A DNA stretch of 64,000 nt from Pseudomonadota bacterium (GTDB lineage: Bacteria > Pseudomonadota > Alphaproteobacteria > Rhodospirillales > Casp-alpha2). Positions 25,677-60,730 of this stretch are shown here, in pieces (position 1 is the stretch's first letter; the number at the start of each line of letters is the position of its first letter). The position numbers and the translations under genes are program-made. The stretch lies in assembly GCA_022564115.1 (NCBI GenBank), contig JADFMB010000001.1, positions 2,195 through 66,194 of the forward strand, in the 5' to 3' direction. The notes under the pieces were generated by a model that was not told where the DNA came from, did not search any database, and saw only the letters and a list, made by a program, of their open reading frames with translations.

Positions 25677-27749
25677 TTGCCCATGACCAGCCCATCAAGC
25701 CAACAAGAATATTTCCAGCAAATTCATCGATGTTTCGCCCTTCTGATGACGGAGGAACAGGAGGAAGCGCTGGAAATAGCGGAAGGATTGCTGAAAAGCA
25801 ATCCGGAAGAGTCGGCAACTTTCTACATCTTGGGCCTTTACGCCTACCAGACGGGCGATTTCGGACGCGCCATAGAACTCCTCAACTCCGCCCATAAAGC
25901 CGATCCCGATTGCCGTGATTTCGCCGACGTGCTGGCGGTCCTCTATACCCTGGCCGGCAAGATCGCCGATGGCCTTTATTTCGCCAAACTGGCGACGGCG
26001 TTGGAGCCAAAGCCCGAAATTTCAAAGATCATTCCGGTCAACCTATCGAATTATTTCGAGGCCCTAAAACGCATCCGGTTGTCGACCAAATACGTCGAAG
26101 CCCTGGTGGATTTCAACCTGAGAAAATTCAACGAGGCCATAAAGCATTGCAAAATGGAACTCCGGTTAAATCAGGACCATGACTCGTGCCTGGGCCTGAT
26201 GGGCAAATGCCATATCCATATTGGGGAATACGACAAAGCCGTTGACGCCCTTCAGAGGGCTATCCATTGGGACCCGGAAATTGCCGAATACCACCTGGAT
26301 CTCGGCTTGGCCCTTTATCATTTGGGGCGTCATGACGAAGCCGTGTCTTGTCATCAGAAGGCCCTTGAACTCGATGACGAATCCCTGGAATTGGCGACTA
26401 AGGCCGTCGGTGCGGCGGAGTACCTCGAAGATGGCAGTACCCAGCGGAAGGCCTTTCAAAAGGATTTGACGAAGCGCGCCCGGGCCCTGCCGAAAACCAA
26501 GCTGCGGAAACCCTCTAAAGCCCGACCGAAAGACAAAATCCGGCTCGGGTACATCTCGAACAGTCTTTTCAGTTCCGATGCCGGGACATTGATTTCAGCC
26601 CTTTTCGATCATCACGACCGCAACCGGTTCGAAATCTATTGCTATCAGCAATCAATCCTCAAAGACGCCATCACCACCAAATTGAAGGTGCAGACCGATT
26701 CATGGCGCAGCATCTTTGACCTCAAGGACGAGGTCATGGAAATGATCATCCGCGGCGATGAAATCGACATCCTTGTCGACCTTTGCGGCTATACGGAAGG
26801 CAGTCGCCCCAGCCTGTTGGCGAAGCGTCCCGCCCCTATTCAGATCGGTTTATTTACCCCCCCGCACGGCATTACCGTGGAAGGCATCGATATCGTCCTT
26901 GGCGATGCCGTGACCGCCGAAACGGACAAGACATTGTTGGGCAAGGGCCAGGAATTGATCGTCGTCGATATGGGCCTGGTGGCAATGGAACAAATGCTGT
27001 TCATGCCGGACCCCAATGACCTGCCGGCGCTTTCCAATGGATTTGTCACCTTCGGGGGACGTTGCGATTTCGCCGCCTTAGGCCCCAGCGCCGCGGCCGT
27101 ATGGTCCGATATTCTGAACCGGGTCCCCAATTCCCGTTTGATGTTGGGCAACGTCAGGACCATTCCCGAAGCCGTCCGCAACCACGCCGTCGAGGTGTTT
27201 TCCCAACACGGCGTCGCCGACCGCCTGCAGTTCTGGGATACGGAAAACGACGAACAAAAGATTATCGAGTTCTTCCATCATATAGACGTGTTTTTGGATT
27301 CCCCTCCCGTTTCCGGCTTCATGAATCTTTGTCAAGGCCTGTGGATGGGCGTGCCCGTGTTGACGTTGAAAGGCGACCGCCGGTCCGGACAGATGGGCGC
27401 CAGCCTGTTGATGTCCGCCAGCCAGCAGCAATGGATCAGCGAAACCGGTGATGAAATGGCCGAAAAGGCGGTTTCCCTGGCAAACGATCTGGATGAGCTG
27501 GCCAAAACCCGCGCCTCGTTGCGCGAGGCGTTGAAAGGAACGGCTTTGTTCCATCCCGAATTCGTTACCCGGGCCATCGAAGACGCTTACGTGAAGGCGA
27601 TGGAATTAAAGAAAAAGGGAAAGGCCAAGTCACCCACCGCCAAAACCTCGAAGAAACCGGCGGCGCCCAAGAAGACAGCGCGAAAGCCCGCCCCGAGAAA
27701 GGCTGCGGCGAAAAAAGCCCCGGCGAAAAAAGGCAAGGGCGCCAAGTAG
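25677..27749 (+). CDS. TPR-repeat protein with SPINDLY/O-GlcNAc-transferase-type (GT41) C-terminal domain; FlmG-like candidate flagellin glycosyltransferase
   Basis: - N-terminal TPRs.
- The GT41-type region reads RLGYISNSLFSSDAGTLISALFDHHDRNRFEIYCY ... DVFLDSPPVSGFMNLCQGLWMGVPVLTLKG.
- A Lys/Ala/Pro-rich tail closes the protein.
- ATG 25683 is an alternative start. Confidence 0.7.
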   Translation: MPMTSPSSQQEYFQQIHRCFALLMTEEQEEALEIAEGLLKSNPEESATFYILGLYAYQTGDFGRAIELLNSAHKADPDCRDFADVLAVLYTLAGKIADGLYFAKLATALEPKPEISKIIPVNLSNYFEALKRIRLSTKYVEALVDFNLRKFNEAIKHCKMELRLNQDHDSCLGLMGKCHIHIGEYDKAVDALQRAIHWDPEIAEYHLDLGLALYHLGRHDEAVSCHQKALELDDESLELATKAVGAAEYLEDGSTQRKAFQKDLTKRARALPKTKLRKPSKARPKDKIRLGYISNSLFSSDAGTLISALFDHHDRNRFEIYCYQQSILKDAITTKLKVQTDSWRSIFDLKDEVMEMIIRGDEIDILVDLCGYTEGSRPSLLAKRPAPIQIGLFTPPHGITVEGIDIVLGDAVTAETDKTLLGKGQELIVVDMGLVAMEQMLFMPDPNDLPALSNGFVTFGGRCDFAALGPSAAAVWSDILNRVPNSRLMLGNVRTIPEAVRNHAVEVFSQHGVADRLQFWDTENDEQKIIEFFHHIDVFLDSPPVSGFMNLCQGLWMGVPVLTLKGDRRSGQMGASLLMSASQQQWISETGDEMAEKAVSLANDLDELAKTRASLREALKGTALFHPEFVTRAIEDAYVKAMELKKKGKAKSPTAKTSKKPAAPKKTARKPAPRKAAAKKAPAKKGKGAK

Positions 27750-27801
27750 GCTGTTTCGGGGCGAACGAGCCCGGCGCGGGGACGGCCGGGACAAGGAAAT
27801 A

Positions 27802-28635
27802 TCAGATAAACAGGTTAAGGACGGACCCGGGCTCGGGCCTGAACGGGCTCAGGAACTTGTTCAATGTGAAAGCGAAACTGGAGTTCGTTTCGAAGCTCAG
27901 CGAGATGGCGATCAAGAGGTTGGCGAATTGGCCCTTGATGTTTTCAATTTCCGTCGCCTTGCGGATCGCTTCGACGGTCGTCAAATCGGTGAAATCGGCA
28001 AGGATTTCGGCCTGTTTGGCTTGAATGTTCTGTTCCAGGTCGAGGGCCAAGCTGACGGTGTTCTGGGTCGTCGTCAGGGCCGTCAATAAATGATTTTGCA
28101 GCGTCGATACCGCAGCCGTGGCGTCGATGTTTTCCTGGTCCGTCGACTTGCTGCCGACGACGGGACTGAGGGCGTTCAGGTTGTCGATTTCCAACTTCAG
28201 GGTCTGGATGGTATTGCCGTCGACGATATCGGGAAGAACGAAGAAGTAAAGATTGTTGAGTCTTTCAACGATTTCGTCCCGTTTCGCGTTGAAGGCGTCG
28301 ACTTCGGCCTGGCTGACCGCGTCGTCCTCCCCCAGGGCGCTGGACAACGTGTCGGCATCCTCGAGGAGCTGTTGGATTTGGCCCAGGTTGTTGGAATTGC
28401 CGTTCCGGTAGGCTTCGATCAGCGGCAACGAGTCCGCCAGTTTCAAACCGTCACGCTGAAGCTTGGCAATCGTTTGCCGATCGCTGGCGCCGCTTTCGTT
28501 GATGCGTTTGATTTCCTTGTTGACACGCCTGATGATCGTGTTCTGCAACTGGGAAAATTGGAGCTCGAAATCCGGCTGAGAAGCAAACAGCCCTATATTG
28601 GCAAACGTTGCGGCGAGGGGGAAAATTTCGGCCAT
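27802..28635 (-). CDS. Hypothetical coiled-coil protein (277 aa), no family recognised
   Basis: This is a clean ORF, AT-richer than the surroundings and rich in helical heptads. The C-terminal residues GSVLNLFI recall flagellin-family C-termini (compare ILSLFR in the neighbouring flagellin). Confidence 0.6.
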   Translation of the reverse strand: MAEIFPLAATFANIGLFASQPDFELQFSQLQNTIIRRVNKEIKRINESGASDRQTIAKLQRDGLKLADSLPLIEAYRNGNSNNLGQIQQLLEDADTLSSALGEDDAVSQAEVDAFNAKRDEIVERLNNLYFFVLPDIVDGNTIQTLKLEIDNLNALSPVVGSKSTDQENIDATAAVSTLQNHLLTALTTTQNTVSLALDLEQNIQAKQAEILADFTDLTTVEAIRKATEIENIKGQFANLLIAISLSFETNSSFAFTLNKFLSPFRPEPGSVLNLFI

Positions 28636-28883: not shown

Positions 28884-31118
28884 ATGTTACGGGTGCCTTC
28901 ACCCGGAAAACCGAAATTTCAATGGGTTTACCGTCAAATGCAGAACGCCTTAAAAGCGAAAAAAGCCAAATCCGCCAATAGACCTTCCGCCACCACCAAA
29001 AAAACGCCCCCCGGGAAGAAGCCGAAAAAGAGGAAATCCGTTAAAACGGCCAAAACCGGCAAGCCGAAAAAAACCAAGCCGAAAAAAAAGCTCGACCTTT
29101 CGAACCCCAAGGTCCGCGCCAAGCTGAAAAAGAAAAACCTGGCGCGCTTTAAAATCAAGGCCCCTGAGCTTTACCGGTTGGTCGAAAACTATGAGCCTTT
29201 AACGAAATTGGTTTTTGGCGATGACGGGCGGCCCGACGTCATTTTCGAGGGTGAATACTTCTACAACCAACGCTATGACGAATACGTTTCCCGGCAGCTC
29301 AAGGGTTTCTGGCGGGACCCGAAACGCCTGCGTATCGCCCCGATGCAGCCCGAGACCTTCGATGGAACCGCAGGCCTCTTTATCCACAAGATTCTAGAGC
29401 GCGGCACCAACAAGGGAATCGATTTCCATGTCGGTCACACTTCGGAAGAAAGCTATTTCCTATACATTTTTGGGCTCGGATTCGGCGAACATATCGATGA
29501 GCTCGTCAAAAAGACCAATTGCCGGGCCTTGGCGATCGCCGATCCCAATCCGGAATTCCTTTTTCATTCCCTGGAACTCTATGACTGGGGGAATCTTTTC
29601 GACACCATGGACAAAAGGGAAGCCGTCGTTCACGTTATTATCGAAAGCGATCCCGTTGTCCTTAGCTATAAAATCCGCACCTGGCTTCGCGGCAGCAACC
29701 CCATGGCCGTCGACGGGGCGACCCATTACATCCATTACAACAACCCGATTTTCGCCGCCGCCATCCAGCGGCTGGACGAAGACAAGGAACTGATTCTTTC
29801 GGGCCTCGGGTTTTTCTACGACGAAACCCTGATGATCAAGAACACCCACCACAATCTCTATCCCGGTACCGAGAGGGTTTACATGCGCCCCGAGGATCCG
29901 AGAATCGATGCCCCGGTGTTTGTCATCGGAAACGGCCCGTCGCTGGACAATGATCTCGATTTCCTGCGCGAAAACCAGGACAAGGCCATTATCGTCTCCA
30001 GCGGTTCGGCGCTGCGGCCCCTGATCCTCAGCGGCGTGGTCCCCGATTTCCAAATAGAAACGGAAAACATCGATGTTTTTCCCCTGATCGATCAGGTAGC
30101 AAAAGATCATGATATTTCAAAGGTTTGCCTGGTAACATCGACAACGGTCGATATTGAGGTGCCGCCTCTTTTCGATGACCTGCTCTATTACTTCCGGGGG
30201 TCCCTGAGCCCTTATCCCCTGTTCTGCAACTCCGACAAGCGGTGCCTGGGCAACCCCAACCCCACCGTCGTCAATGCCAGCCTTTCCTTTGCCCAGGAAC
30301 TGGGATTCAGGACTTTTTATTTTTTCGGTACCGACCTGGGAACCACCATGGGGGCCGAAAAACACCATTCCAAGCACGCCTACCAATATACCAAGGGGGC
30401 CATCGTCAGGCCGCAAACCTACAACATCCCCGTTCAAGCCAATTTCGGCGGCATCTGCATGGCCTCTGACGGCATGTTTTGGACCCGCGACGCCATCGAA
30501 AAGGCGATCCGCGAAATAGAATCGGGCCGAATGTATTTCAACTGCAGCGACGGCGCCCTGATCGAGGGCACGGTTTCCATGCCGTCGAATTTGGTTGAAT
30601 TGGACGATCTTTCCGAAGGCAAACGGCCGATCATCGATAAAATCAAGGAAGCCTTTCCTGTTTACGACCGCAAGGAATTCGATGACCACTGGGAAGACGA
30701 CAAGCTGCAAGAATACTTCAACGAATGGCTTGATGAATTCATTGCCCTGTCCATGGATGTGCCCAACTACGATGACCGGACCTACCTGACAAGGATCATG
30801 GCCCATTTTCATCCGGTGAGGCGGTTGCATCCGGGATCGTGGGGGCCGGCCCTGTTGTTCCGGGGGACGCTTTTCCAGATCATGATGAGCTTTGAATTCT
30901 ACCTCCGGCGGGTCGTCAAAAAGGACGTTCGCAAATTCGAAAAGATCGTCCGGAAAGAAATAATCCACGCCGTCGATTACCTTCGCGAAACAGCGGAAAA
31001 GGAATTCGGAACCCTGTCCAAGGACGCGGCGAAACGGGTCAAGAAGGCTATTTCCAAAAAGAAGAAGGCCTCCTCTAAAACTAAAAAAACCGCTAAAAAG
31101 AAATCCTCTAAAAAATAG
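28884..31118 (+). CDS. Motility accessory factor (Maf, DUF115/MptE-like) family protein 1, with Lys-rich N- and C-terminal tails
   Basis: The Maf core reads PVFVIGNGPSLDNDLDFLRENQDKAIIVSSGSALRPL...PDFQIETEN. It aligns along its length with the two other Maf paralogs in the window. ATG 28938 is the more likely start. Confidence 0.75.
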   Translation: MLRVPSPGKPKFQWVYRQMQNALKAKKAKSANRPSATTKKTPPGKKPKKRKSVKTAKTGKPKKTKPKKKLDLSNPKVRAKLKKKNLARFKIKAPELYRLVENYEPLTKLVFGDDGRPDVIFEGEYFYNQRYDEYVSRQLKGFWRDPKRLRIAPMQPETFDGTAGLFIHKILERGTNKGIDFHVGHTSEESYFLYIFGLGFGEHIDELVKKTNCRALAIADPNPEFLFHSLELYDWGNLFDTMDKREAVVHVIIESDPVVLSYKIRTWLRGSNPMAVDGATHYIHYNNPIFAAAIQRLDEDKELILSGLGFFYDETLMIKNTHHNLYPGTERVYMRPEDPRIDAPVFVIGNGPSLDNDLDFLRENQDKAIIVSSGSALRPLILSGVVPDFQIETENIDVFPLIDQVAKDHDISKVCLVTSTTVDIEVPPLFDDLLYYFRGSLSPYPLFCNSDKRCLGNPNPTVVNASLSFAQELGFRTFYFFGTDLGTTMGAEKHHSKHAYQYTKGAIVRPQTYNIPVQANFGGICMASDGMFWTRDAIEKAIREIESGRMYFNCSDGALIEGTVSMPSNLVELDDLSEGKRPIIDKIKEAFPVYDRKEFDDHWEDDKLQEYFNEWLDEFIALSMDVPNYDDRTYLTRIMAHFHPVRRLHPGSWGPALLFRGTLFQIMMSFEFYLRRVVKKDVRKFEKIVRKEIIHAVDYLRETAEKEFGTLSKDAAKRVKKAISKKKKASSKTKKTAKKKSSKK

Positions 31119-32813: not shown

Positions 32814-32897
32814 CCCTAATGCGCCTTTGGTAGGGGGGGGGAGGATCTCAAGAGCTCCGAAAGCGCGATTCTGGCGCTTTCAAGACCCTTTAAAACT

Positions 32898-34409
32898 TTA
32901 CCTGAACAGCGACAGGATACCCTGTTCGGCCTGACCGGCGAAGGCCAGGGCGCTGATACCCAACTGTTGTCTGGTTTGCAGCGCCAACAGGTTGGCGCCT
33001 TCTTCGTTGATGTCGGCAAGCGTCAGCTTCGCGGCGCCTGTCTCGAGGGTATTGACGTAGGTCTCCGTGAAGTCGAGACGGGTCTGCAGCAAGGCCACGT
33101 TCGAACCCAGGGTCTGGGCGTTGGAACGCAGCGTCGTCAAGGCGCTGTCGAGCTCGGCAATGACCGCATTGACCTGGGCCGCGTTGCCGATAACCACGTA
33201 GTTGGTGACATTCGCCGCGACGTCGGCGATGGCGATGCCGGTGGCCGCCGCCGCCGTGGCGTCGACAACGGTGATCGTGGCGCTGTTCAGGCCGTTGGCT
33301 GCAATCACACCAAAGAACCCGGTGTTGCCGATCGCCGCGATGTTGCTGTGCGCGGCCGAACCGACGCCCGACGAAAGCGTCAACGTGAACACGTCGCCGG
33401 CCGAAACCGCCTGGCCGGCCACGGTGTTGCCGGCGATAGAGATGCTCACGGTGCCGAAGGTGAACGACAGGGTGGTGCCCGAATCGATGGTCCGGGACGA
33501 TCCCTGGAAGGTGACGGTGATCGTTTCGCCGATGCTCAGCGCATTGTTCGACGTATTGGCGGCAAACTCGATCGTCGGGCCGAGGACGCCGTTTTTCGCG
33601 ATCTCGCCGTAAAATTCACCGGTGCCGACCCCGGTCCCGCGGATACCCGCCTCATCGGCGTCGGATGAAATATTCAGCGTGATGACATCGCCGGCCGAAA
33701 GGGAGATCGTGCCTTGGGTGCTGGCCTTAACGGCGATGGAAACGGTGCCGTAGGTGAAGGTCAGAGTGGACGCCGTATCGATGGTCCGGGCCGTGCCCTG
33801 ATAGGTGACGGTGATCGTTTCGCCGCCGCTCAACGTATTGTTCGACGTGTCGGCGGCGAAGTTGAAGACCGAGGCAACGATACCCGAGGCATGAATGGCC
33901 GCATCGATGCCCAAGCCGCTCTCGCGGACGTTGACGGCGTTGACCGAAAGCAGGCTCGAGGTCTTCTCCGAGAAACTCACCGACAGCGTATCCGTGGTGT
34001 TGTTGACCAGGTTCACGCCCTGGAACGACGCGTCGTCGGCCAGAGAACCGATCTGCGTCCGCAGGCTGTTGAACTGGGTCACCAGGTCGGTGAACTGGGC
34101 GCCGGTCGCCGACTTCAGGTTGGTGGCGACACCCTTGAGCTGGCGGACCACGTTCTCGATCGACTCGATGCCTTCGAGCGCGGCGCTAACCGTCGACACG
34201 CCCTGGTCGATCCCGTCCTTCTTCTCGTTGAAGTCGAAGGCGCGGTCGTTCAGCGTCTTCGCCTGGAAGAAGGCCACCGGGTCGTCGATGGAACTGGCCA
34301 CCCTGAGACCCGTCGACAGCCGGCCTTGGGTGCGGTCGATCAACCGAGTCGTGTTCTGAAGGGAAAGCAGGCTGCTGCGGACAGCCGATGAAAGAGTAAC
34401 GTCAGCCAT
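32898..34409 (-). CDS. Flagellin
   Basis: - N-terminus: LSSAVRSSLLSLQNTTRLIDRTQGRLSTGLRVASSIDDP.
- C-terminus: LRSNAQTLGSNVALLQTRLDFT...LLALQTRQQLGISALAFAGQAEQGILSLFR.
- AAGGAG RBS 8 nt upstream of the start.
- Ser/Thr-rich central domain with an internal duplication. Confidence 0.92.
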   Translation of the reverse strand: MADVTLSSAVRSSLLSLQNTTRLIDRTQGRLSTGLRVASSIDDPVAFFQAKTLNDRAFDFNEKKDGIDQGVSTVSAALEGIESIENVVRQLKGVATNLKSATGAQFTDLVTQFNSLRTQIGSLADDASFQGVNLVNNTTDTLSVSFSEKTSSLLSVNAVNVRESGLGIDAAIHASGIVASVFNFAADTSNNTLSGGETITVTYQGTARTIDTASTLTFTYGTVSIAVKASTQGTISLSAGDVITLNISSDADEAGIRGTGVGTGEFYGEIAKNGVLGPTIEFAANTSNNALSIGETITVTFQGSSRTIDSGTTLSFTFGTVSISIAGNTVAGQAVSAGDVFTLTLSSGVGSAAHSNIAAIGNTGFFGVIAANGLNSATITVVDATAAAATGIAIADVAANVTNYVVIGNAAQVNAVIAELDSALTTLRSNAQTLGSNVALLQTRLDFTETYVNTLETGAAKLTLADINEEGANLLALQTRQQLGISALAFAGQAEQGILSLFR

Positions 34410-34581: not shown

Positions 34582-34932
34582 TTATCTTTTCGACCCCTCC
34601 AAAAGGCCTTCGGAAATTTGCAGGTTGATATTGATAAGGGCGTCCAGCGTCGTTTCCGCCACCTCACCGTCGGCAAAGGTCCGATCGGCGACAAACTGGG
34701 CCAATTTGGTTAAATTATTTTTGACTTCGCCGGCCAGCACGCAATCTTCGCGCATGACGATGGTCCGCAGCGCCACCCAAATTTCCACGTTGACGTTCAA
34801 GGCATCGACAAGCGCCGAAGGGTTGTCGCCCTTCTCCCGACGGGCCTGATCGATGCGGATGGCGGCCTGGGAAAGTTGGAAGGCCTGTTCTTCCGCAAGG
34901 CTCCATTCATCCTGGGGCGCGACGTCAGCCAT
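34582..34932 (-). CDS. flaF: Flagellar biosynthesis regulator FlaF
   Basis: 116 aa with NVNVEIWVALRTIVMRED...VKNNLTKLAQFVADRT. It lies adjacent to flagellin and is divergent from flbT. Confidence 0.8.
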   Translation of the reverse strand: MADVAPQDEWSLAEEQAFQLSQAAIRIDQARREKGDNPSALVDALNVNVEIWVALRTIVMREDCVLAGEVKNNLTKLAQFVADRTFADGEVAETTLDALININLQISEGLLEGSKR

Positions 34933-35140: not shown

Positions 35141-35629
35141 GTGCCTTTAAAAATCGATTTCAAGTCCGGCGACAAACTGGTCATCAACGGCGCGGTGTTG
35201 GAGAATATCGGCCACAACGCCAAAATTCTCATCCATAACGAATCGGCGATCCTGCGGGAAAAGGAAATCCTTTCCGTCGCCGATACCTCGACCCCGGCGT
35301 CCCGGGTCTATTTCGCCCTACAGTGCGCCTACATATTCCCTCACAAAAAGGACGAGCACATCGGCTTGTACGCTGAATTCCTCAAGGAATTCGTGACCGC
35401 CTGCCCGAGCACCAAACCGATTGCCGATGAAATCGAAAAACTCGTCGCCGAGGACAAAATCTACAAGGCGCTGAAGCAAACCCAGAAGCTGATCGCCCAT
35501 CAAGCCAAAGTGCTGAAGAGCCTGGAAACAGGAATCGAAGAGGCTGCCGAAGAAGCTATCGACACCGAAGCCGTGGGCGGAGAGGACGCGGCGGAAGAAC
35601 AGGAAGAAGACCGCGCCGAGGCCGAATAG
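35141..35629 (+). CDS. flbT: Flagellar biosynthesis repressor FlbT (with acidic C-terminal tail)
   Basis: N-terminus: MPLKIDFKSGDKLVINGAVLENIGHNAKILIHNESAILREKEIL, matching the FlbT family signature. A GTG start is annotated by the ORF track. Confidence 0.85.
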   Translation: MPLKIDFKSGDKLVINGAVLENIGHNAKILIHNESAILREKEILSVADTSTPASRVYFALQCAYIFPHKKDEHIGLYAEFLKEFVTACPSTKPIADEIEKLVAEDKIYKALKQTQKLIAHQAKVLKSLETGIEEAAEEAIDTEAVGGEDAAEEQEEDRAEAE

Positions 35630-35694
35630 GCCTTTCCGGCTGATTGTCCTCCTATGTTGGCGTCACCCACTCAGACACGCTGGATGCCGGGAAA

Positions 35695-36711
35695 ATGAAC
35701 CTTTTCGGCAAGGATCTCGACCGCGACATCCCGATTATCGCTGAAATCGGCGTCAACCACGAAGGCGATCTCGAGACCGCCATCACCTTGATGCGCCTGG
35801 CCCGCGACGCCGGGGCCGATGCCGCCAAATTCCAAACCTTCACGCCGGAACGCTATGCCTCGGCGTCCGATCCCGACCGGCTGCAACGGGTGCGGGGTTT
35901 CGATTTGGGCGAGGACGGCTTTCGCCGCATCGCCGAGGAAGCGGAAAAAGACGGGTTCCCGGTTTTTTCGACTGCGGTTTCCGAAGACGTGGTGCCGTTC
36001 CTGGCTGGACTGTTCCCGGTCCTCAAGATCGCCAGTGGCGACATCGATTTCGAGCCGGTGATCCGGGCAGCGGCGGAAACCGGCAAACCGGTGATCCTAT
36101 CGACCGGCCTGGCGACGGAGGAAGAAGTCGATGCCGCCGTCGGCTGGTTTCGGGATGGGGCGGGGACCGAGGACATCCGCGACCGTTTGGTGCTGATGCA
36201 CTGCGTTTCCGCCTATCCGACCCCGATCAAGGAAGCCAACGTGATGAGCATCCCCTATCTGTCCGAACGGACGGGCCTGAGAATCGGCTATTCCAACCAC
36301 ATCATCGGACCCGAGGCCTGCCTGGCCGCCGTGGCGTTGGGGGCTTGCGCGATCGAAATCCACTTCACCGACCGCAAGGAAGGTCGGGAATTCCGCGATC
36401 ATGCGCTATCGTGTGACGCCGACGACCTGGCCCGCCTGGTCGAGACGGTGCCCCGAATCCGCGCCAGCCTGGGCCGGCGGGAAAAGCAGCGCCAACCCAG
36501 CGAGATGGAGAACCTGATCGCCGTCCGCAAGGGCGTGGTGGCGGCCCGCGACCTCGAAGCCGGGGCGGTATTATCAAGAGACGACCTGATGTTCGCCCGC
36601 CCGGCAAGCGAATATCCGGCCTCTGAAATCGACAGCCTTCCCGGCGCCCGCCTGAAAGCGGCGGTCGGCAAAGGGGAACTCATTCGCCGCGACAACGTGG
36701 ATTTTGGGTAA
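35695..36711 (+). CDS. N-acetylneuraminate synthase family enzyme (NeuB/PseI/LegI-type nonulosonic acid synthase)
   Basis: - N-terminal motifs PIIAEIGVNHEGD and AKFQTF.
- Core motifs KIASGD and MHCVSAYP.
- C-terminal SAF-like domain (AVRKGVVAARDLEAGAVLSRDDL).
- ATG 35695 chosen over the TTG at 35644. Confidence 0.85.
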   Translation: MNLFGKDLDRDIPIIAEIGVNHEGDLETAITLMRLARDAGADAAKFQTFTPERYASASDPDRLQRVRGFDLGEDGFRRIAEEAEKDGFPVFSTAVSEDVVPFLAGLFPVLKIASGDIDFEPVIRAAAETGKPVILSTGLATEEEVDAAVGWFRDGAGTEDIRDRLVLMHCVSAYPTPIKEANVMSIPYLSERTGLRIGYSNHIIGPEACLAAVALGACAIEIHFTDRKEGREFRDHALSCDADDLARLVETVPRIRASLGRREKQRQPSEMENLIAVRKGVVAARDLEAGAVLSRDDLMFARPASEYPASEIDSLPGARLKAAVGKGELIRRDNVDFG

Positions 36712-36716
36712 ACCCT

Positions 36717-39313: not shown

Positions 39314-39384
39314 GGCCGAGATGTCCGAAACCCGCTTAAGGGCTTTCCTTTCCAGCCCCGTTTCCGCCAAGATGGTCGGCGACC

Positions 39385-41603: not shown

Positions 41604-41852
41604 GGGTTTCGGGCGCCAATCCCTCTTTCGTTAACCAAAACCGCCCGATTAGGCCACCAACCGGGATCGAGAATCCCAATCCCTAAACCGTTTTCGAAAC
41701 ATCCTGTTAACGAATCGCCGCTTTAATAGGGTTAATGAATCGACCCCCAGAGGATCCAGAGGATATAGTGATCGAGGTTCAGCCTGGAAAACCGGACATC
41801 AAGGTCACCGTCCAGAACGTGACGGCTCGATTCACAGAATGAGGAGTGCGTC

Positions 41853-44337: not shown

Positions 44338-44362
44338 TCTAGGTCATGAACGGAAAGCCCGA

Positions 44363-45478: not shown

Positions 45479-45497
45479 CCGGGGGCATCCGCCAGCC

Positions 45498-46394: not shown

Positions 46395-46397
46395 GCC

Positions 46398-49302: not shown

Positions 49303-49306
49303 GCCG

Positions 49307-50047
49307 GTGCCGAAATTCATCGCCAGCATCGAGGCCCGGATGGGATCGACCCGCCTGCCGGGCAAGATCCTGGAAGACGTCGGCGGGGTGCCAGTGTTGA
49401 CGCGGCTGTTGCGCCGCCTGCGGCGGGCCAAGCGGCTTGACGGCATCGTGTTGGCCACCACCGTCAATCCGGCCGACGACGCCATCGAGGAATGGGCCGA
49501 GGGCGAGGGCCTGGACTGGTTCCGCGGCAGCGAGGACGACGTGCTGGCCCGGGTCGTCGATGCCCAGCAAATGATGCGTTCGGACATCGTCGTCGAGGTT
49601 TGCGGCGATACGCCGCTGCTCGACCCGGAGGTCATCGACATGGCCATCGAGGCCTTCGCCGCCAACACCTGCCACGTGGTCACGACGACGCGCAAGAAGT
49701 CGTTCCCCGACGGCATCGACGCCGAGGTGTTCCGGCTTTCCGATCTCGAACGCGTCGCCGCCACCGTCACCGACCGGGCGGTGCGCGAACACGTGTCGCT
49801 GTATTTCTACCAACACCCGGAACGCTACCGCATCCATCATCTGCCGGCGCCCCCCGCATGGCGCCGCCCCGACCTGCGGCTGGTCCTCGACGAAGCCGAT
49901 GATCTGGCGCTTATCCGCGAAATCTACACCCGGCTGGAGCCCGAACACGGGGACGAATTCGGCACGGTCGAGATCATCCGGCTCTTCGACAGCGAGCCGG
50001 AACTGATGAACATCAACCGGCCGGCAAGCGAAAAGGTGGCGCCATGA
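49307..50047 (+). CDS. SpsF-like cytidylyltransferase family protein (copy 3 of 3)
   Basis: ASIEARMGSTRLPGKILEDVGGVPVL, with a GTG start. Confidence 0.7.
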   Translation: MPKFIASIEARMGSTRLPGKILEDVGGVPVLTRLLRRLRRAKRLDGIVLATTVNPADDAIEEWAEGEGLDWFRGSEDDVLARVVDAQQMMRSDIVVEVCGDTPLLDPEVIDMAIEAFAANTCHVVTTTRKKSFPDGIDAEVFRLSDLERVAATVTDRAVREHVSLYFYQHPERYRIHHLPAPPAWRRPDLRLVLDEADDLALIREIYTRLEPEHGDEFGTVEIIRLFDSEPELMNINRPASEKVAP

Positions 50048-51066
50048 CCGGCAACGGCCTGCGCACCATCGTCATCGGCTTCGGCCAGATCGCCCAGGGT
50101 TTGGGCGAGGACGGCCGGATGGCGAAATTTTTCACCTACGCCACCCATGCCCAGGTGTTGAGGGATCATCCGGGGTTTCAATGGCTGGGCGTCGTCGACC
50201 CTTCGAAGGAAGCGCAAAAGGCGGCCCGGGACGTTTGGAACGTCGCCCACGTTTCGGAGGACCTTTCGAAGGTCGCCCGCGAGGTCGAACCGGAAGTGGC
50301 CATTATCGCCGCGCCCCCCGGCGCCCGGGCCGAGATCGTGCAGCAACTCCCCAGCCTCAAGGCGGTGCTGGTGGAAAAGCCGCTGGGCTACGGCGGCGAG
50401 GAAGGCCGGGCGTTCGTCGATTTCTGCCGGCAAAAGAACGTCCATGTGCAGGTGAATTACTGGCGCCGCGGCGACGAGCTCTACCAACAGCTTGCCCAGG
50501 GTGGCCTCGCCGAGCGGATCGGCCGCCCGCAGGCGGTGTTCGCCACCTACGGCAACGGGCTGTTCAACAACGGTGGTCATCTGGTGGATTTCATCCGCAT
50601 GCTTTTGGGCGAGGTCGACACGGTGCAGGCCCTGGACCATCCCCGCCCGGCTGAGGACGCGCCGCTGGAAGGCGATGTCCAGGCGGCCTTTGCCCTGACC
50701 CTTGCCGGCGGCGCCATCGTCACCGTGCTGCCGCTGGACTTCGGCCACTACCGCGAGGTCGGCCTCGACATCTGGGGCGAGGAAGGACGGTTGGCGCTCT
50801 ATCAGGAAAGCCTCGGCGTCTTCCACTATCCCCTCGCCGGCAACCGGGGCCTGGTAAACGAAATGGAGATCAGCTCCGACAAGCCCCAGGTCCTGGAACC
50901 GACGGTGGGAGGCGCGCTCTATCGGCTTTACGACAACCTGGCCGAAACCGTTGACGGCACCGCCGAGCCCTGGAGCCCCGGCGATCAAGCCGTGCATACG
51001 GAGTTGATTTTGGAATCGGTGCTGAATTCGGCGGAGAGCGGGTGCGAACGGCTGCATTTCCAATGA
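50044..51066 (+). CDS. Gfo/Idh/MocA family oxidoreductase (copy 2)
   Basis: Rossmann-like N-terminus (RTIVIGFGQIAQG) and VLVEKPLG motif. Confidence 0.7.
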   Translation: MTGNGLRTIVIGFGQIAQGLGEDGRMAKFFTYATHAQVLRDHPGFQWLGVVDPSKEAQKAARDVWNVAHVSEDLSKVAREVEPEVAIIAAPPGARAEIVQQLPSLKAVLVEKPLGYGGEEGRAFVDFCRQKNVHVQVNYWRRGDELYQQLAQGGLAERIGRPQAVFATYGNGLFNNGGHLVDFIRMLLGEVDTVQALDHPRPAEDAPLEGDVQAAFALTLAGGAIVTVLPLDFGHYREVGLDIWGEEGRLALYQESLGVFHYPLAGNRGLVNEMEISSDKPQVLEPTVGGALYRLYDNLAETVDGTAEPWSPGDQAVHTELILESVLNSAESGCERLHFQ

Positions 51067-51070
51067 TGGG

Positions 51071-52234
51071 ATGGGCGCCATGAGCGGCGGCGGAAAGGAC
51101 CGGGCGGACGTGTTGATCTTCGTCGAGGATCCGGGTGCCGTGAACGCCGTCGTCGACCTGCCGCAAGCCCTGGCCGCCACGGGACTGAAGACCCGGACGT
51201 TGGCCACCGGGCACGCGGTGGAATACCTGGCCTCGTTCGGCGCCGATTTCACCGAACCTGACGCGGCCGCCGACGCCGCCGCTCTGATCGACGCCCTCAA
51301 CCCGCGAATGGTCGTCTCCGGCACTTCTGAAAACCCGGATACGCTCGGCCTCAAGTTGATCGCCGAAGCCCGGAAACGGGGGCTTGCCAATGTCGGCTTC
51401 CTGGACGGCCCGGCGAGCGCCGACCACCGGTTCCGGGGCTCCGGCGACGTCCCTCTGGCCTTCGCCCCGGAATGGATCCTGGTCCCCGACGCCATGACCC
51501 GAAAGCGTTACCAGGCCCTGGGGCATCCGGTTGAACGCATCGTCGATTGCGGGCATCCCTATTTCGACCGGGTGCGGGTGACCGCCGCCGAACTGGCGAA
51601 ACGGGGCAAGGCGGCGGTCCTGGCCGAGGTTTTGCCCGACGCGCCGCCGGACCGGCCGGTGGTCGTGTTCCTGGCCGAGATTTCGACCAGCCTGGCCCCG
51701 GAAAAGCTTCGCCGGAGCCCCGAATACACCCTCCACGGGCGCGGCGGCAGCGACCTGCGCACCCAAATCGTGCTTGAGGAGGTTCTGGACGCGGTGACGC
51801 TGATCGAGCCCCGGCCTTATTTCGTGCTGCGGCTGCATCCTAAGAATTCGGCCGATGAATTCGACGCCTACGGCCCCGAAATCGACTCCCTCAGCCAATC
51901 CGGGCTGGCCGCCGATCTTGTTTACGCCGCCGACCTGGTGATCGGGATGACGACCATCCTGCTGTTCGAGGCCGCCCTGATGGACTGCCCGACCCTCAGC
52001 GTCACCCCCAAGCCGTCTGAAACCGAGTGGCTGACCAGCATCGGCCTCGGCATCACCCCTTCGGTGCACACGCGGGAAGATCTCAGGGAAATCCTGCCCG
52101 CGGCGCTCGCCGATCCGGGCCGGGTGATGGGCACGCCGCCGGGGGAGGTTTTAAACTTCGGCGCCCTGGAACGGATGGCGGATTTTATTTCCGGTCTGCT
52201 GGCGGATGACACAAGCGCCCGGGAAACGAACTGA
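51071..52234 (+). CDS. Hypothetical protein, possibly two-Rossmann (GT-B-like) fold; candidate for the missing hydrolase/epimerase or transferase step
   Basis: This is a clean 387-aa ORF in the operon with alternating beta-alpha-like segments (VLIFVEDPG..., VVVFLAEIS..., LVIGMTTILLFEAALMDCPTL). No diagnostic motif recognised. Confidence 0.5.
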   Translation: MGAMSGGGKDRADVLIFVEDPGAVNAVVDLPQALAATGLKTRTLATGHAVEYLASFGADFTEPDAAADAAALIDALNPRMVVSGTSENPDTLGLKLIAEARKRGLANVGFLDGPASADHRFRGSGDVPLAFAPEWILVPDAMTRKRYQALGHPVERIVDCGHPYFDRVRVTAAELAKRGKAAVLAEVLPDAPPDRPVVVFLAEISTSLAPEKLRRSPEYTLHGRGGSDLRTQIVLEEVLDAVTLIEPRPYFVLRLHPKNSADEFDAYGPEIDSLSQSGLAADLVYAADLVIGMTTILLFEAALMDCPTLSVTPKPSETEWLTSIGLGITPSVHTREDLREILPAALADPGRVMGTPPGEVLNFGALERMADFISGLLADDTSARETN

Positions 52235-52250
52235 TCGAGGGAACCCGACG

Positions 52251-52784
52251 ATGGCCGAAGCCCCGACATTGGAAACCCCGCGCCTGACGCTGGCGCCGTT
52301 TTCGGACGAACACCTGACGGAGCGCTACGTCGGCTGGCTCCAGGACCCGGACGTGGTCCGTTATTCCGAACAGCGCCACCGCACGCATACCCTGGAGAGT
52401 TGCCGCCAATTCGCCGCCTCGTTCGCCGACGGGCCCAGCCACCTGTGGGCGATCATCGAGAATAAACAAGGCCTCGGCCATATCGGCAACATCAACTCCG
52501 ACGTCGACGCCGCCAACCGGACCGCCGACGTCGCCGTCATGATCGGCGAGAAACAGGCCTGGGGACAGGGATTGGGCTTTGAGGCCTGGAACGCCGTTCT
52601 CGATTATCTTCTCGGCCCCGGCGCCATGCGCAAGGTGACCGCCGGCACCATGGCCGAAAACAAGGGCATGCTGGCGATTTTCGAGAAATCCGGGATGACC
52701 GAGGAAGGGCGCAGGAAAAAGCAGTTCCAGTTGCTGGACCGCGAAGTGGACGCCATCCTGGTCGCCCGTTTCGCCGAAACCTAG
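52251..52784 (+). CDS. GNAT family N-acetyltransferase (RimJ/RimL-like)
   Basis: RLTLAPFSDEHLTERYVGWLQDPDV ... WGQGLGFEA. The start is placed at ATG 52251. Confidence 0.8.
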   Translation: MAEAPTLETPRLTLAPFSDEHLTERYVGWLQDPDVVRYSEQRHRTHTLESCRQFAASFADGPSHLWAIIENKQGLGHIGNINSDVDAANRTADVAVMIGEKQAWGQGLGFEAWNAVLDYLLGPGAMRKVTAGTMAENKGMLAIFEKSGMTEEGRRKKQFQLLDREVDAILVARFAET

Positions 52785-55535: not shown

Positions 55536-56504
55536 ATGGCGAATATGCTGCGGACATTGGTCGAGGCAATGGGCCTAGAAGGAGCCGAGATATGTCTTCA
55601 CGGCGATCCAAACGTTAATCCGAACGAAAACCCGCTTTTCTTCTATCACGTGCACAAAACGGGCGGCATTTCCGTAATTAGTTGTCTGCTCATGGGATTT
55701 TGGGCAAACGAGGCGTTACGAAATCCCGACCGCACAATTGATGAATTGTATCGGGATGCGACGAGCCATATCGGCCGTTGGGATACCCGCAGCGTGAACG
55801 ATGCGCCCCATCCACCCGATGACAGGCCCGATGGTTATTCTTTTGTTTCGTCGCACCATAAATTTGGCCACCACGAGTTGTTTAAACAGAATTTCCGCTT
55901 GTTCACGATGCTCCGCGATCCGGTGGAGCGGGTGATTTCAGATTACCATTACCGGGTCTGGCGAAAACACGAAGGATATGAATCCCTTAGCGAGGAAGGG
56001 TTCGTCTCATACATTCGCGATCCGGACAACGTCTGCATGCATAGTCAACATCTGTCACGATTGAACCTTCGGAAGGACGGGATCGAAAGGATGGGTGAGG
56101 ATGCCATGAGCAATCTTCAGGCGCTGGACGGCTACGGCACTACCGATCAATGGGAAGATTTCGTTCAAAGTGTTTGGAACAACTGGGACTTTCCAAATTA
56201 CATAGGTTCGAGATGGTTGAAGACGCCCCGTCGGGAATGTCTAAACACGGATCCATTCACCGAGGAGTTGATTGAACTCAACAAATATGACATCGCGTTG
56301 TACGAATATGCCAAACAAAACCCTAGGCCGCTAGCAGCCGTTTCCAATGGAACCAATTTCCGTCACCACTCGATTATCGTCTACGATAAGGATGAAGATG
56401 CAGGGACCTTCGACGACGCTCAGATCATCAAGACGACGGATTTTCTGAACAGGGTCAAGCAGGGCGAGAAAAAGCTCTCGGACTTCGCGGCTCCGGCAGC
56501 ATAG
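55536..56504 (+). CDS. Sulfotransferase family protein (PAPS-dependent, Sulfotransfer_2-like motifs)
   Basis: 5'-PSB-like motif FFYHVHKTGGIS and 3'-PB-like motif TMLRDPVERVISDY. The gene is AT-richer than its neighbours: three 60-nt lines I counted gave 40-52 percent G+C, versus 58-75 percent in two lines from neighbouring genes. Confidence 0.7.
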   Translation: MANMLRTLVEAMGLEGAEICLHGDPNVNPNENPLFFYHVHKTGGISVISCLLMGFWANEALRNPDRTIDELYRDATSHIGRWDTRSVNDAPHPPDDRPDGYSFVSSHHKFGHHELFKQNFRLFTMLRDPVERVISDYHYRVWRKHEGYESLSEEGFVSYIRDPDNVCMHSQHLSRLNLRKDGIERMGEDAMSNLQALDGYGTTDQWEDFVQSVWNNWDFPNYIGSRWLKTPRRECLNTDPFTEELIELNKYDIALYEYAKQNPRPLAAVSNGTNFRHHSIIVYDKDEDAGTFDDAQIIKTTDFLNRVKQGEKKLSDFAAPAA

Positions 56505-57042: not shown

Positions 57043-59142
57043 ATGGACGCGAAGAAAAGACAAAAGCTGCGGACGCGGAACCTACAGGCGATCGGCAATA
57101 TCCTGCCGCCCCTGGCCGACGCCCTGAAACGCCACAACCCCTTATCGAAGCTGGTTTTCGACGATGATGCCGAGGACGGCGGGGGCGACGTGACCGTCAA
57201 CGGCGTCCCGGTCTATGGCGGCCGGGCGCGGGATTTCGCCGCCGAAAAAGTGGAAAAGTTCCACCGCGGGGGGCTCCGAATCGTGATGCCGAAGCCGGAG
57301 CCGGGCATGTTCGACGAGCACACCAACGGCTTCCTGCAGGCCCTTGACCAGCGCACGGCCGAGGAAGGAATCCGGTTCAGGGACACCCCCGAAGGCCCGG
57401 ACGCCTATTACCTGATCGTGTTTGGTATCGGCTTGGGTTACCACCTGGAGGCGCTGGCCCGGGAAGGCGCCCCCGAATTCATCGTCCTGGTTGACCAGAG
57501 CCTGGATTTCCTGTGCCATTCCCTCGAAGTCTTTGACTGGGGGCAATTCATCGATTCCATGCTTTCGCGAAACCGCCGGATCGCCTTCGCCATCGACCCC
57601 AATCCACAGACGCTTTCGATAATGATCGCCAACATCGTCGAAAACTGGAACCCGCCATCGGTGGACGGAACCCGGGTATTCATGCTCGATGACTGGCCGG
57701 TTGAATCCCAGGTAATGCAGGCGCTGGACGTTGAAATGGGCAAGGTGCTGTCGTTCATGGGCTTTTTCAACGACGAAATCATCATGCTTCGCAATACCTA
57801 TAACGCGCTCGGTTCGGGCCAGGCGAAGGTCTATCGGCGGCCCAACAACCCAAAGGTCGACGTGCCGGTGTTCCTGGTCGCCTCGGGCCCGTCGCTCGAC
57901 GAAAACATCCCCTTTATCCGGGAAAACCAGGACAAGGCGGTGATTATCTCCAACGGGACGGCGTTGCGGTCCTTGTTGATCAACGGCATCACGCCCGATA
58001 TCCAGATCGAGACCGAAAACGTCCTCGTCTATCCCCTGGTCGCCCTGGTCGGGGAAAAGTTCGACTTGTCGTCCATCTGCCTGATCGCCTCGACGACGGT
58101 GGATTCTCATATCCTGGACTTCTTCGGCGACGTCATTTTCTTCTTCCGCTCGGCGCTCAGCCCCTATCCGCTGTTCTGCGAATCGGAAAGGAACTGCCTT
58201 CTCAACCCCGACCCGACGGTGGTCAACGCCGGGTTGTCGTTCGCCCAGGAAACGGGTTTCCAGGACATATATTTCTTCGGCGTCGACTTGGGGACCCGCG
58301 GCCAAGGCCGGCACCATTCCAAGGACAGCTACCATTACACCGAAAACCCCATCGTCGTGCCCGAGGACCTGATATTCAACATTCCGGTGCCGGGAAATTT
58401 CGGCGGCCCGTTCTTTTCGTCCATGGGCTTCGCCTTCACCCTGACCAATCTGGTCGCCGCCATCGGCGCCTCGGGCCCGGGGATCAGGCATTTCAATTGC
58501 TCGGACGGGGCGCTGATCGAGGGGGCGCAACCCGAAAAAGTCTCTTCGCTTTCGTTCGCCGACATCCCCGGCGGCAAGAAACAGGCCGTCGAGAAGATCA
58601 TCGGGGGGTTTCCGACATATCCGAAAGCGAGGTTCGAAAAGGCCTGGAACGAAGACAGGCTTTTCGCCGCCGTCAACGGGTTCGCCGACCGGCTGATCGG
58701 CGCCTTCGAAGGCCTGGAGTCCTTCGAGGACAAGTCGGCGCTGGTTCGCGCCACTGACTTCTTCAGGCCCCTGGTCGACAAAACGTCGCTTTTGCAAAAG
58801 CGTTTCGACCATACGGCCTTGCAAATTTTCCGCGGCACCTGTCTGTTGATGATGGGAACGGTGGAATATTTCGCCAACCGCCTGTCCGCTCCCGAACACC
58901 ACCGGGCTTTTGCCAAAATCGTCGGCGAGGAAATCATCGTTGTCGCCGAAAATCTGAGAAAAAAGGCGGTCGAGATTTTGAGCGACCCGACGGTGGTCCC
59001 GGCGATCACCAACGAAGGCGCCATCGAGCCCGAGGGCGTGATTCCCGAGGTTTCCGCCAGTTGGGGAAGCGTCCCGCGCAACGCCCCGTGTCCTTGCGGG
59101 TCGGGAAAAAGGTACAAGCAATGCCACGGAAGCATGACGTAA
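57043..59142 (+). CDS. Motility accessory factor (Maf, DUF115) family protein 3 with C-terminal SEC-C motif
   Basis: [52 protein letters not shown]. The C-terminus reads [15 protein letters not shown]. Start at ATG 57043 within a longer ORF-track frame. Confidence 0.75.
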
Positions 59143-59146
59143 GAGC

Positions 59147-60730
59147 ATGACGGACAAGGAAGAAACGGGTCAAAACGGCGTTCCCGCCGATAACGTCTAC
59201 CAGGCGGCCCTTTTGCAGGCCGAAGGCAAGACCGAGGAGGCCGAGGCCGCCTTGCGAGAAATCCTGGACGGCCATCCCGATCAGCCCGATGCGCTGCATT
59301 TGCTGGCCATCCTGGAATTCAGGAAAGAACGTTCAAGGGTAGCCGCCGACCTGGTTTCGCGGGCCATCGCAATCAATGCGGACAATCCCGATTACCACGC
59401 CACCCTGGGCTCCATCCTCAAGGCCCAGAGCCAAATTACCGAGGCCGGGAACCATTTCGCCCGCGCCGCGGCATTGTCGCCCGAAAACGCCGACTATCAT
59501 TTCCATTGCGCCGAGATGCGGCGGCTGGACAGCAAAAACGCGCAAGCCGAGGAAAGTTACCGCAAGGCGCTGTCGCTTCGGCCCGATTTTCCGCTGGCCG
59601 GCAACGGCCTCGGCATCGTCCTCGACGAACAGGGAAAAAACGAGGAAGCCGAGGCATGCTTCCGCGAAGCCCTGAAAACCATGGGCGAAAACCCTGATCT
59701 CCTCTACAACCTGGGCAACGTTCTCAAGGACCAGCACCGGCCCGACGAGGCCTTGACCGCCTACCGCCGGGCCCTCGAAATCCGGCCTGATTTCCCCGAA
59801 GCCCATGTGCAGATTGCCTTTGCGCTGCTGCTGAAGGGCGATTTCACCGCCGCCTGGGAGGAATACGAATGGCGGTGGCGGATGCCGACATTCACCAGCA
59901 ATGTTCGGAACTTCGATCAGCCGGTTTGGGACGGCGCCGCCCTCGACGGCCGGACCATCCTGCTCCACGCCGAACAGGGGTTCGGCGATACCCTGCAATT
60001 CGCCCGCTACGCCAAGGCCGCGGCGGATAGGGGCGGGCGGGTGATTTTCGAGTGCCCGCCGCCCTTGGCGCGGCTGATGAAAACCGCCGCCGGCGTCGAT
60101 GAGGTCATCGCCAGCGGCCAGCCCTTGCCACCGTTCGATTGCCATGCGGCTCTTCTCAGCCTGCCCGGGATCGTGGGAACGACGCTCGAAACCGTGCCGG
60201 CGGACGTCCCTTACCTGTCGGCGGAACCGGACCTTGTTTCGGCCTGGGCGGAGCGCCTCAAGGACGCGCCGGGGCTGAAGATCGGCATCGCCTGGTGCGG
60301 AACGGCAGAAAAAAGGGGCAATCCGTCCCGCGCCTGCCCGCTGAGCGCCTTCGAACCGCTTTCGCGGCAACCGGACATAAGCCTTTTCAGCCTGCAAAAG
60401 GACCCGCCGGAAGAAGACCTTCCCCTGCCCGACGGTCTCACCGACCTTTCCGGCGATTTGAATGATTTCGCCGATACCGCCGCCGTCATCCAAGCCCTCG
60501 ACCTGATCGTCAGCATCGACACCGCCGTCGCCCATCTGGCCGGCGCCCTGGCCTGCCCGGCGTGGGTGATGCTGTCGACGGCGGGGGATTGGCGATGGTT
60601 GATGGAGCGCGGCGACAGCCCCTGGTATCCGACCCTGAGGCTTTTCCGCCAGACCCGGGCCCGCCAATGGGACGACATTCTCGAGGCCGTCTCGGCCGAA
60701 GCCGCCGCTCTTATAGCGTCTCAGGGTTGA
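59147..60730 (+). CDS. TPR-repeat protein with glycosyltransferase family 9-like C-terminal domain (paralog of 31182-32723)
   Basis: TPRs are followed by ILLHAEQGFGDTLQFARYAKAA ... DFADTAAVIQALDLIVSIDTAVAHLAGALACPAWVML...PWYPTLRLFRQ. Confidence 0.7.
   Translation: MTDKEETGQNGVPADNVYQAALLQAEGKTEEAEAALREILDGHPDQPDALHLLAILEFRKERSRVAADLVSRAIAINADNPDYHATLGSILKAQSQITEAGNHFARAAALSPENADYHFHCAEMRRLDSKNAQAEESYRKALSLRPDFPLAGNGLGIVLDEQGKNEEAEACFREALKTMGENPDLLYNLGNVLKDQHRPDEALTAYRRALEIRPDFPEAHVQIAFALLLKGDFTAAWEEYEWRWRMPTFTSNVRNFDQPVWDGAALDGRTILLHAEQGFGDTLQFARYAKAAADRGGRVIFECPPPLARLMKTAAGVDEVIASGQPLPPFDCHAALLSLPGIVGTTLETVPADVPYLSAEPDLVSAWAERLKDAPGLKIGIAWCGTAEKRGNPSRACPLSAFEPLSRQPDISLFSLQKDPPEEDLPLPDGLTDLSGDLNDFADTAAVIQALDLIVSIDTAVAHLAGALACPAWVMLSTAGDWRWLMERGDSPWYPTLRLFRQTRARQWDDILEAVSAEAAALIASQG

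Follow-up and report, generated by a model that had tools for sequence, protein, structure and literature searches.

A predicted flagellin glycosylation island of a Rhodospirillales-type alphaproteobacterium, with a conserved Maf module, likely FlmG-like TPR/GT-B proteins and a GT41-like protein of doubtful catalytic activity

How one flagellin could be served by three families of putative glycosyltransferases is the question raised by a 35-kb stretch of alphaproteobacterial DNA, positions 25,677 to 60,730 of the window, the whole 64,000-nucleotide sequence analysed here (contig JADFMB010000001.1). Judged by its gene content, the stretch is predicted to be a flagellin glycosylation island of a Rhodospirillales-type alphaproteobacterium. 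A preliminary description of the window had placed around the flagellin gene three Maf paralogues (DUF115), one protein combining tetratricopeptide repeats (TPR) with a SPINDLY/GT41-type domain, termed FlmG-like, and two proteins combining TPRs with a GT9-like domain, and had taken them as three active classes of transferase. The genes from 20 to 64 kb were mapped from the list of open reading frames (ORFs), and their proteins were scanned against Pfam and NCBIfam. All six genes are found where they had been placed, with the domains attributed to them, and the island lies, as described, between FlgK, a FlgL-like protein and a second FlaF (FlaF') upstream and FliK and FlgD, which follow the last gene, TPRb. 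In the explanation that we consider probable, the island combines a conserved Maf module, a supply of nonulosonic acid, two TPR/GT-B proteins (TPRa and TPRb) acting in the style of FlmG, and a GT41-like protein serving as a non-catalytic partner.

All three Maf proteins appear intact. Each carries the Pfam domains Maf_flag10_N (112-152 bits, cut-off 23.5) and MptE-like (DUF115; 92-104 bits, cut-off 34.6), and each matches 5MU5, the Maf structure of Magnetospirillum magneticum AMB-1 (E = 3e-95 for Maf1, 2e-71 for Maf2 and 1e-87 for Maf3). The alignments cover residues ~4-633 of the 666 in 5MU5, giving every paralogue the full three-domain architecture; in Maf1 the aligned part comprises residues 74-697. 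The motifs PVFxxxxGPSLD and PD[FI]Q[IV]E[TS]EN, quoted in the preliminary description, are readable in all three. Pairwise, the paralogues are 31-38% identical. Together with six orthologues they share 71 invariant columns, including GPSxD, PD..E.EN, FGxDxG and HH, and every invariant Asp of the family alignment (GPSxD, PD, FGxD) is kept. A conserved acidic residue, D247/D261, is required for the activity of the Shewanella Mafs.

The window Mafs thus share with the AMB-1 protein both Pfam domains, an end-to-end alignment and a place beside flagellin and nonulosonate genes, but they are only ~33-40% identical to it, exist as three paralogues and bear additions of their own, namely a SEC-C motif in Maf3 and Lys-rich tails in Maf1. 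The locus also resembles the flagellin locus of Campylobacter jejuni, in which several Maf paralogues lie beside the genes for two or more nonulosonate derivatives, acetamidino tailoring included. It differs from that locus in its extra TPR/GT families, in its alphaproteobacterial FlaF and FlbT and in having no poly-G phase-variation tracts in its Maf genes. No homopolymer tract suited to phase variation was found in the Maf genes, the sole G9 tract being intergenic. This tract (32833-32841) is noncoding and falls within the 174 bp that separate the convergent genes for TPRa and flagellin.

Some additions to the Maf proteins are unusual in themselves. The SEC-C zinc-binding motif at the C-terminus of Maf3 (window 59077-59130; Pfam 35 bits) has PDB matches among the C-terminal peptides of SecA and is absent from Maf1 and Maf2. 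Maf1 has Lys-rich extensions at its N-terminal (28884-29110) and C-terminal (~31030-31115) ends, and the last ~40 residues of the GT41-like protein form a tail (27624-27746) with many Lys, Ala and Pro. Such basic, histone-H1-like tails are unusual on cytoplasmic glycosylation proteins.

The donor sugars would be provided by the run of genes that starts with flbT and continues through 21 sugar genes to a GNAT gene ending at 52784, with gaps of -4 to 249 bp. Its gene content reads as a nonulosonic acid pathway with heavy tailoring. The run encodes a NeuB-family synthase (NeuB/LegI-like), three CTP_transf_3 cytidylyltransferases that are mutually 26-32% identical, an AsnB-like amidotransferase, two GFO/Idh/MocA oxidoreductases and two DegT aminotransferases. 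Tailoring is represented by the HisH/WbuZ/WbuX trio, associated with acetamidino groups, a methyltransferase, a formyltransferase and the GNAT protein; an ORF of 384 residues without assignment (orf384) also belongs to the run. The pathway looks to be of the legionaminic or neuraminic acid type (Leg/Neu), not the classical pseudaminic acid (Pse) type: the NeuB model scores the synthase higher than the PseI model does (250 against 197 bits), and the Epimerase-family dehydratase is LegB-like, not of the PseB type.

Aligned from end to end, TPRa and TPRb show 35% identity. In TPRa the TPRs extend over approximately residues 1-225 and are followed by a GT-B domain of ~288 residues; the C-terminal domain measures 288 residues in TPRa, 291 in TPRb and 282-311 across 48 homologues. 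In an alignment-based AlphaFold model of TPRa (predicted local distance difference test score, pLDDT, 93.9), a TPR superhelix leads into two Rossmann-like β/α lobes, which a C-terminal helix closes off, the C-terminal domain being modelled as a GT-B fold with a small N-lobe. When the full TPRa model is used for a fold search, TPR matches dominate (SPY, OGT, designed TPRs). Forty columns of the C-terminal domain are invariant, including EQGxGD and DTxxxHLxGA, and all are retained in both window proteins. Among them, D218, T219, H223, L224, G226 and A227 coincide with the GT9 nucleotide-sugar motif D(T/S)xxxHLAxA. All 16 C-terminal domains scanned match GT9 (best E = 3.7e-7), and many database homologues of TPRa carry a precomputed PF01075 match. 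The label GT9-like seems fair for the two proteins, if remote.

A counterpart in architecture is FlmG, a protein of 596 residues in which a TPR region (1-313) binds flagellin and the last 288 residues are assigned to the "GT-B superfamily" (PMC7591256). In Phenylobacterium, flmG adjoins flbT-flaF-flagellin (fljM) (PMC2529317). Because the layout of TPRs plus a ~288-residue GT-B domain and the position at the side of flagellin both match, TPRa and TPRb are reassigned here as the likely FlmG-type proteins of the island, FlmG being compared by its published description only. The preliminary description had given that name to the GT41 protein, whose catalytic region of ~380 residues is unlike the 288-residue transferase domain of FlmG. 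With FlmG of Caulobacter crescentus and Brevundimonas subvibrioides, TPRa and TPRb share the domain layout and the neighbourhood of flagellin, flaF and flbT; they differ in their shorter TPR regions (~225-240 residues against 313) and in occurring together with Maf. Maf is absent from Caulobacter, and FlmG is said to occur in Caulobacterales only (preprint 10.1101/2023.12.03.569772). The C-terminus of FlmG deduced from published primers, ...ALRDFAAS, beside ...ELTDFARHRGA in TPRa, offers a weak hint only. The association with flagellin is recurrent: of 18 loci, 11 have a GT9-like gene abutting flagellin, in two different gene orders; the order at one locus (L011) is TPR-GT, flbT, flaF.

A short GT9-like gene of ~365 residues without TPRs is common in related loci, often beside NeuB or orf277 (L028, 7874-8989; L025, 19101-20249; L037, L039 and L043); the window contains none. 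The idea that the Maf3-TPRb pair is a duplicate of Maf1-TPRa was rejected, as the contig of a relative (L066) has the order GNAT-TPRb-fliK without Maf3. The locus of the closest Maf3 relative, in which no other module gene is seen within 10 kb, counters it as well.

The GT41-like protein belongs to its family by fold. Its Pfam match (PF13844) reaches 102.5 bits against a cut-off of 25, and its best solved relatives are SPINDLY (E = 2e-57) and the Thermobaculum OGT 5DJS (5e-56); the catalytic region alone still finds them with E = 3e-43 and 2.5e-46. TPRs and a full-length GT41 fold are features in common with human OGT (hOGT), SPINDLY and the bacterial OGT homologues. GT41 genes also occur in predicted flagellin glycosylation islands of enterobacteria (PMC4875605), a setting shared by the gene in the window. 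The difference lies in the active site. Residues D554, H558, K842, K898 and H901 of hOGT are replaced by S296, S300, A467, D525 and I529, and the GHTT motif G-H920-T921-T922, whose two threonines we take to be donor-binding or catalytic residues, is replaced by G-F548-M549-N550. In OGT, the substitutions K842M, K898A and H901A abolish glycosylation, while D554A and H558A reduce it (PMC4840301). In the same alignment, SPINDLY still has counterparts of D554, H558, K842 and the two threonines. Across 30 orthologues from related flagellar loci, the D554, H558, K842 and GHTT positions are variable; the structural motifs LWMGVPV, RPAPVQ and LVDLCG are conserved.

With the OGT residues substituted here and variable in the orthologues, a third active transferase class becomes doubtful: the three families named in the preliminary description are all present, but one of them is altered at every key OGT residue. 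The GT41-like protein is unlikely to be a canonical uridine diphosphate (UDP)- or guanosine diphosphate (GDP)-sugar transferase; it probably acts as a TPR partner that is non-catalytic or non-canonical. A GT41-like gene is also present on plasmid p1 of Azospirillum brasilense Sp7 (L098, NZ_CP012915.1:129816-159327), in a region from which Maf and flagellin are absent.

The same set of genes is found in many relatives. A metagenome scan with the Maf alignment yielded 79 loci, which were screened by local profiles; 65 are non-redundant and 24 span at least 12 kb. A GT41-like gene is present in 16 of these 24 and a GT9-like domain in 17, both in 14, and both together with flagellin in 13; ten loci have two or more GT9-like genes. 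The GT41-like gene abuts Maf or stands ~1 kb from it in 19 of 23 loci, a distance compatible with orf277 alone in between. Among the contexts of TPRa homologues (43-58% identical to TPRa), five independent genomes or contigs show one block: FlaF', GT41-like, an ORF of 27x residues on the minus strand, Maf, TPR/GT-B, flagellin on the minus strand, flaF and flbT, usually with NeuB next. The module is seen in loci L005, L007-L010 and L011. FlaF' heads this conserved block, in the same position in L005, L007, L008 and L010. The combination is therefore a conserved module of many related loci and is not unique to the window. The preliminary description knew of no characterised system of this composition and had suggested a genome search for islands encoding DUF115, TPR-GT41 and TPR-GT9 proteins together. 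That search, as run here, finds the stack to be recurrent; in the literature, no paper was found that describes or characterises the GT41-like/GT9-like/orf277/Maf combination. The order flagellin, Maf, GT41-like, GT9-like, orf277-like is also seen at a locus with a Maf that shares 65% identity with the crystallised AMB-1 protein. From this order it follows that the module very probably surrounds the AMB-1 maf, the best-studied alphaproteobacterial Maf, as well.

The remaining member of the module, orf277, has no match in Pfam, NCBIfam or the PDB. Orthologues at the same position are 43-63% identical, orf277 adjoins Maf in 12 of 12 loci, and its 40 homologues, from Rhodospirillales and metagenome-assembled genomes of Proteobacteria, are all "hypothetical" or unnamed. 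They conserve a C-terminal motif, PGSVLNLF, that is flagellin-like. The system that comes nearest in idea is that of Shewanella oneidensis, where a flagellin-binding helper is fused to Maf (the TPR domain of Maf-1) or encoded beside it (GlfM, for Maf-2), the TPR domain or GlfM being needed for flagellin binding (preprint 10.1101/2023.12.03.569772). The window Mafs have no TPR domain of their own, and orf277 is always beside Maf, with TPR proteins in the same module. At 277 residues, however, orf277 is not an 89-residue four-helix bundle and resembles nothing known, and the candidate TPR partners of the window bear glycosyltransferase-like domains in addition.

Part of the downstream end of the island appears to have a different history. 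In a relative represented by a 98-kb contig (L066), one end carries flgK ... GT41-like, orf277, Maf, TPRa, flagellin, and the other end carries GNAT, TPRb, fliK, flgD, with nothing between GNAT and TPRb; the contig has no Maf2, no sulfotransferase-like gene and no Maf3 at this position. Because L066 is without these three genes, the segment 52809-59142 looks like a lineage-specific insertion. The G+C content agrees with this, being low at 54-58 kb; it is 0.52-0.55 in the GT41-like gene, orf277 and Maf1, 0.506 in the sulfotransferase-like gene and 0.59-0.68 in the sugar operon. Orthologues of Maf1 are 54-62% identical to it. The best relatives of Maf2 elsewhere reach just 31-35%, and the closest relative of Maf3 (60%) lies in a locus, L040, with no other module gene within 10 kb. 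For Maf3, the start at 57043 is supported by the genes called on identical contigs of other assemblies.

The presumed acceptor is the only flagellin of the window, encoded beside flaF and flbT. Ser and Thr make up 22.7% of its residues. Its variable domain contains a tandem duplication of ~95 residues (residues ~183-277 and 282-375; window 33285-33863; 53% identity, E = 7e-28), owing to which the protein is ~100 residues longer than its orthologues of 383-405 residues. Although the preliminary description was right that the window holds a single copy, another assembly of the same population (L099:5001-8092; ENA ERZ23498856 scaffold_238) has two tandem flagellin genes with 100% identical proteins. 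The true copy number is uncertain for this reason, and the single gene of the window may be a collapsed assembly repeat.

Taken together, these features are best accounted for if the island carries out cytoplasmic O-glycosylation of flagellin, organised around an old and conserved module of FlaF', GT41-like protein, orf277, Maf, TPR/GT-B protein and flagellin. By family assignment, the operon from flbT to GNAT would make at least one 5,7-diamino-nonulosonic acid activated with cytidine monophosphate (CMP), and the genes present would allow acetamidino, formyl, methyl and possibly sulfate tailoring. By homology, the Maf proteins would transfer the nonulosonic acids to Ser/Thr residues of the duplicated surface domain of flagellin before its export, the three paralogues most likely differing in donor variant or acceptor site. 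TPRa and TPRb, to judge from their architecture, most likely bind flagellin through their TPRs and would then attach either a further sugar or, at other sites, nonulosonic acid. The GT41-like protein, together with orf277, most likely helps to present flagellin to Maf as a non-catalytic or non-canonical partner, a role hypothesized to be analogous to that of the TPR domain of Shewanella Maf-1, or of GlfM for Maf-2. Maf2, the sulfotransferase-like gene and Maf3 would be a lineage-specific addition to this module.

Several points weigh against this explanation. A replacement motif, TFGGxCDL, is common to the closer orthologues of the GT41-like protein and could mean that the donor has changed, not that activity is lost. 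The GT9 assignment given in the preliminary description holds for the family and is consistent with the GT-B model, but the two window proteins score 17.1 and 20.3 bits, below the Pfam Glyco_transf_9 gathering cut-off of 22, and their sub-threshold match is confined to profile positions ~173-204, the nucleotide-sugar motif. Searches of the PDB by sequence and by profile find no solved structure for the C-terminal domain, and the likeness of TPRa and TPRb to FlmG is one of architecture and published description, not of compared sequences. Members of the TPR/GT9-like family number in the thousands, are spread over many phyla and occur outside flagellar loci too, with 8-9 copies on each Azospirillum chromid in a plasmid collection. 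Finally, the specificity of each Maf and the identity of the sugar are not readable from the sequence.

A bolder form of the argument would make the Mafs of this clade a multi-component machine, in which the degenerate GT41-like protein and orf277 are required adaptors and the TPR/GT-B proteins are true FlmG relatives outside Caulobacterales, so that both known transferase classes act on one flagellin. We put this forward tentatively, as something that may prove true but more probably goes too far. It is unlikely, to a somewhat greater degree, that Maf, GT41 and TPR-GT9 proteins are all active and together furnish flagellin with a multi-sugar glycan, with, for example, GT41 adding N-acetylhexosamine (HexNAc) or deoxyhexose, Maf the nonulosonic acid and the GT9-like proteins extending the chain. 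The repeated and tight linkage of the three families to flagellin would suit such a glycan, as would the many tailoring genes of the operon, the preserved GT41-like fold with many of its structural motifs and the frequency of GT41 genes in the enterobacterial islands (PMC4875605). Yet the GT41-like protein is without equivalents of D554, H558, K842, K898, H901 and T921/T922, its orthologues vary at the positions checked, and the island shows no evident pathway to hexose, HexNAc or deoxyhexose nucleotide sugars beyond the nonulosonate route. A glycan of several sugars or several sites on flagellin, as the preliminary description proposed, is in itself plausible.

Two further readings are improbable in our judgement. 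One is that the substrate of the TPR/GT-B proteins, of the GT41-like protein or of both is not flagellin but, for example, the long FlgL-like protein or another flagellar export substrate, orf277, a non-flagellar protein or a glycolipid, the place of these genes in the island reflecting co-regulation only. Other substrates would fit the thousands of TPR/GT9-like proteins across many phyla and the flagellin-like C-terminal motif of orf277, as well as the 8-9 copies that each Azospirillum chromid carries, which in the one region examined are not accompanied by Maf or flagellin. The abutment of a GT9-like gene and flagellin in 11 of 18 loci and two gene orders argues for flagellin instead, and so does the way in which the Maf, orf277 and GT41-like genes remain together through rearrangements. 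About as improbable is that Maf2, Maf3 and TPRb are redundant, or are being lost after horizontal acquisition, leaving the core Maf1 system alone to modify flagellin. Such a history would be in keeping with a relative whose corresponding position lacks Maf2, Maf3 and the sulfotransferase-like gene, with the lower G+C content of this segment in the window and with a closest Maf3 relative whose locus has no other module genes within 10 kb. Against decay, none of the three Mafs is truncated or has lost an invariant residue, an identical island is present in several independent assemblies, no frameshifts are seen and coding homopolymers are limited to an A8 run in Lys codons; moreover, there are as many divergent cytidylyltransferase genes as Mafs, three of each.

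Current accounts of flagellin glycosylation with nonulosonic acid recognise two classes of transferase, Maf and FlmG, and the reconstitution of Maf activity often fails for want of unknown partners (preprint 10.1101/2023.12.03.569772). The module supplies testable candidates for such partners, even in the lineage of the Maf that serves as structural model: a TPR/GT-B protein of FlmG architecture, a degenerate OGT-like TPR protein and an ORF of 27x residues. It also points to possible relatives of FlmG outside Caulobacterales. The GT41-like protein, if the proposed role is true, would be a natural example of a GT41 fold in which the canonical active site has been abandoned, possibly a pseudo-glycosyltransferase. 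A practical interest lies in engineering site-specific protein sialylation.

Table 1. Positions in the window of the island genes and of the genes flanking them
Feature	Position	Strand	Annotation
flgK	20051-22249		NCBIfam TIGR02492
FlgL-like gene	22263-24851		
Second FlaF paralogue (FlaF')	25005-25484	+	NCBIfam FlaF NF009435, 70 bits; downstream of flgK-flgL
GT41-like TPR protein, 690 residues	25677-27749	+	Pfam Glyco_transf_41
orf277	27802-28635	-	no annotation
Maf1, 744 residues	28884-31118	+	Pfam Maf_flag10_N and MptE-like
TPRa, 513 residues	31182-32723	+	TPR and C-terminal GT-B domain, remotely GT9-like; convergent with flagellin gene
Flagellin, 503 residues	32898-34409	-	Pfam Flagellin_N and Flagellin_C
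flaF	34582-34932	-	Pfam FlaF
flbT	35141-35629	+	Pfam FlbT, 119 bits; opens packed co-oriented 22-gene run
Predicted nonulosonic acid biosynthesis and tailoring operon, 21 genes	35644-52784	+	Pfam, NCBIfam, gene calls on identical contigs
Maf2, 637 residues	52809-54722	-	most divergent Maf paralogue; no TPR gene adjoining
Sulfotransferase-like gene	55536-56504	+	Pfam Sulfotransfer_2, 30 bits against cut-off 22; G+C 0.506
Maf3, 699 residues from the 57043 start	57043-59142	+	C-terminal SEC-C zinc motif
TPRb, 527 residues	59147-60730	+	TPR and GT-B (GT9-like); 4 bp after Maf3, upstream of fliK

The flanking genes show two further features. The FlaF paralogue that follows flgL and the one beside flagellin are 29% identical to each other. 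The FlgL-like hook-associated protein has 862 residues, ~250 more than its counterparts of 609-612 residues in related loci.

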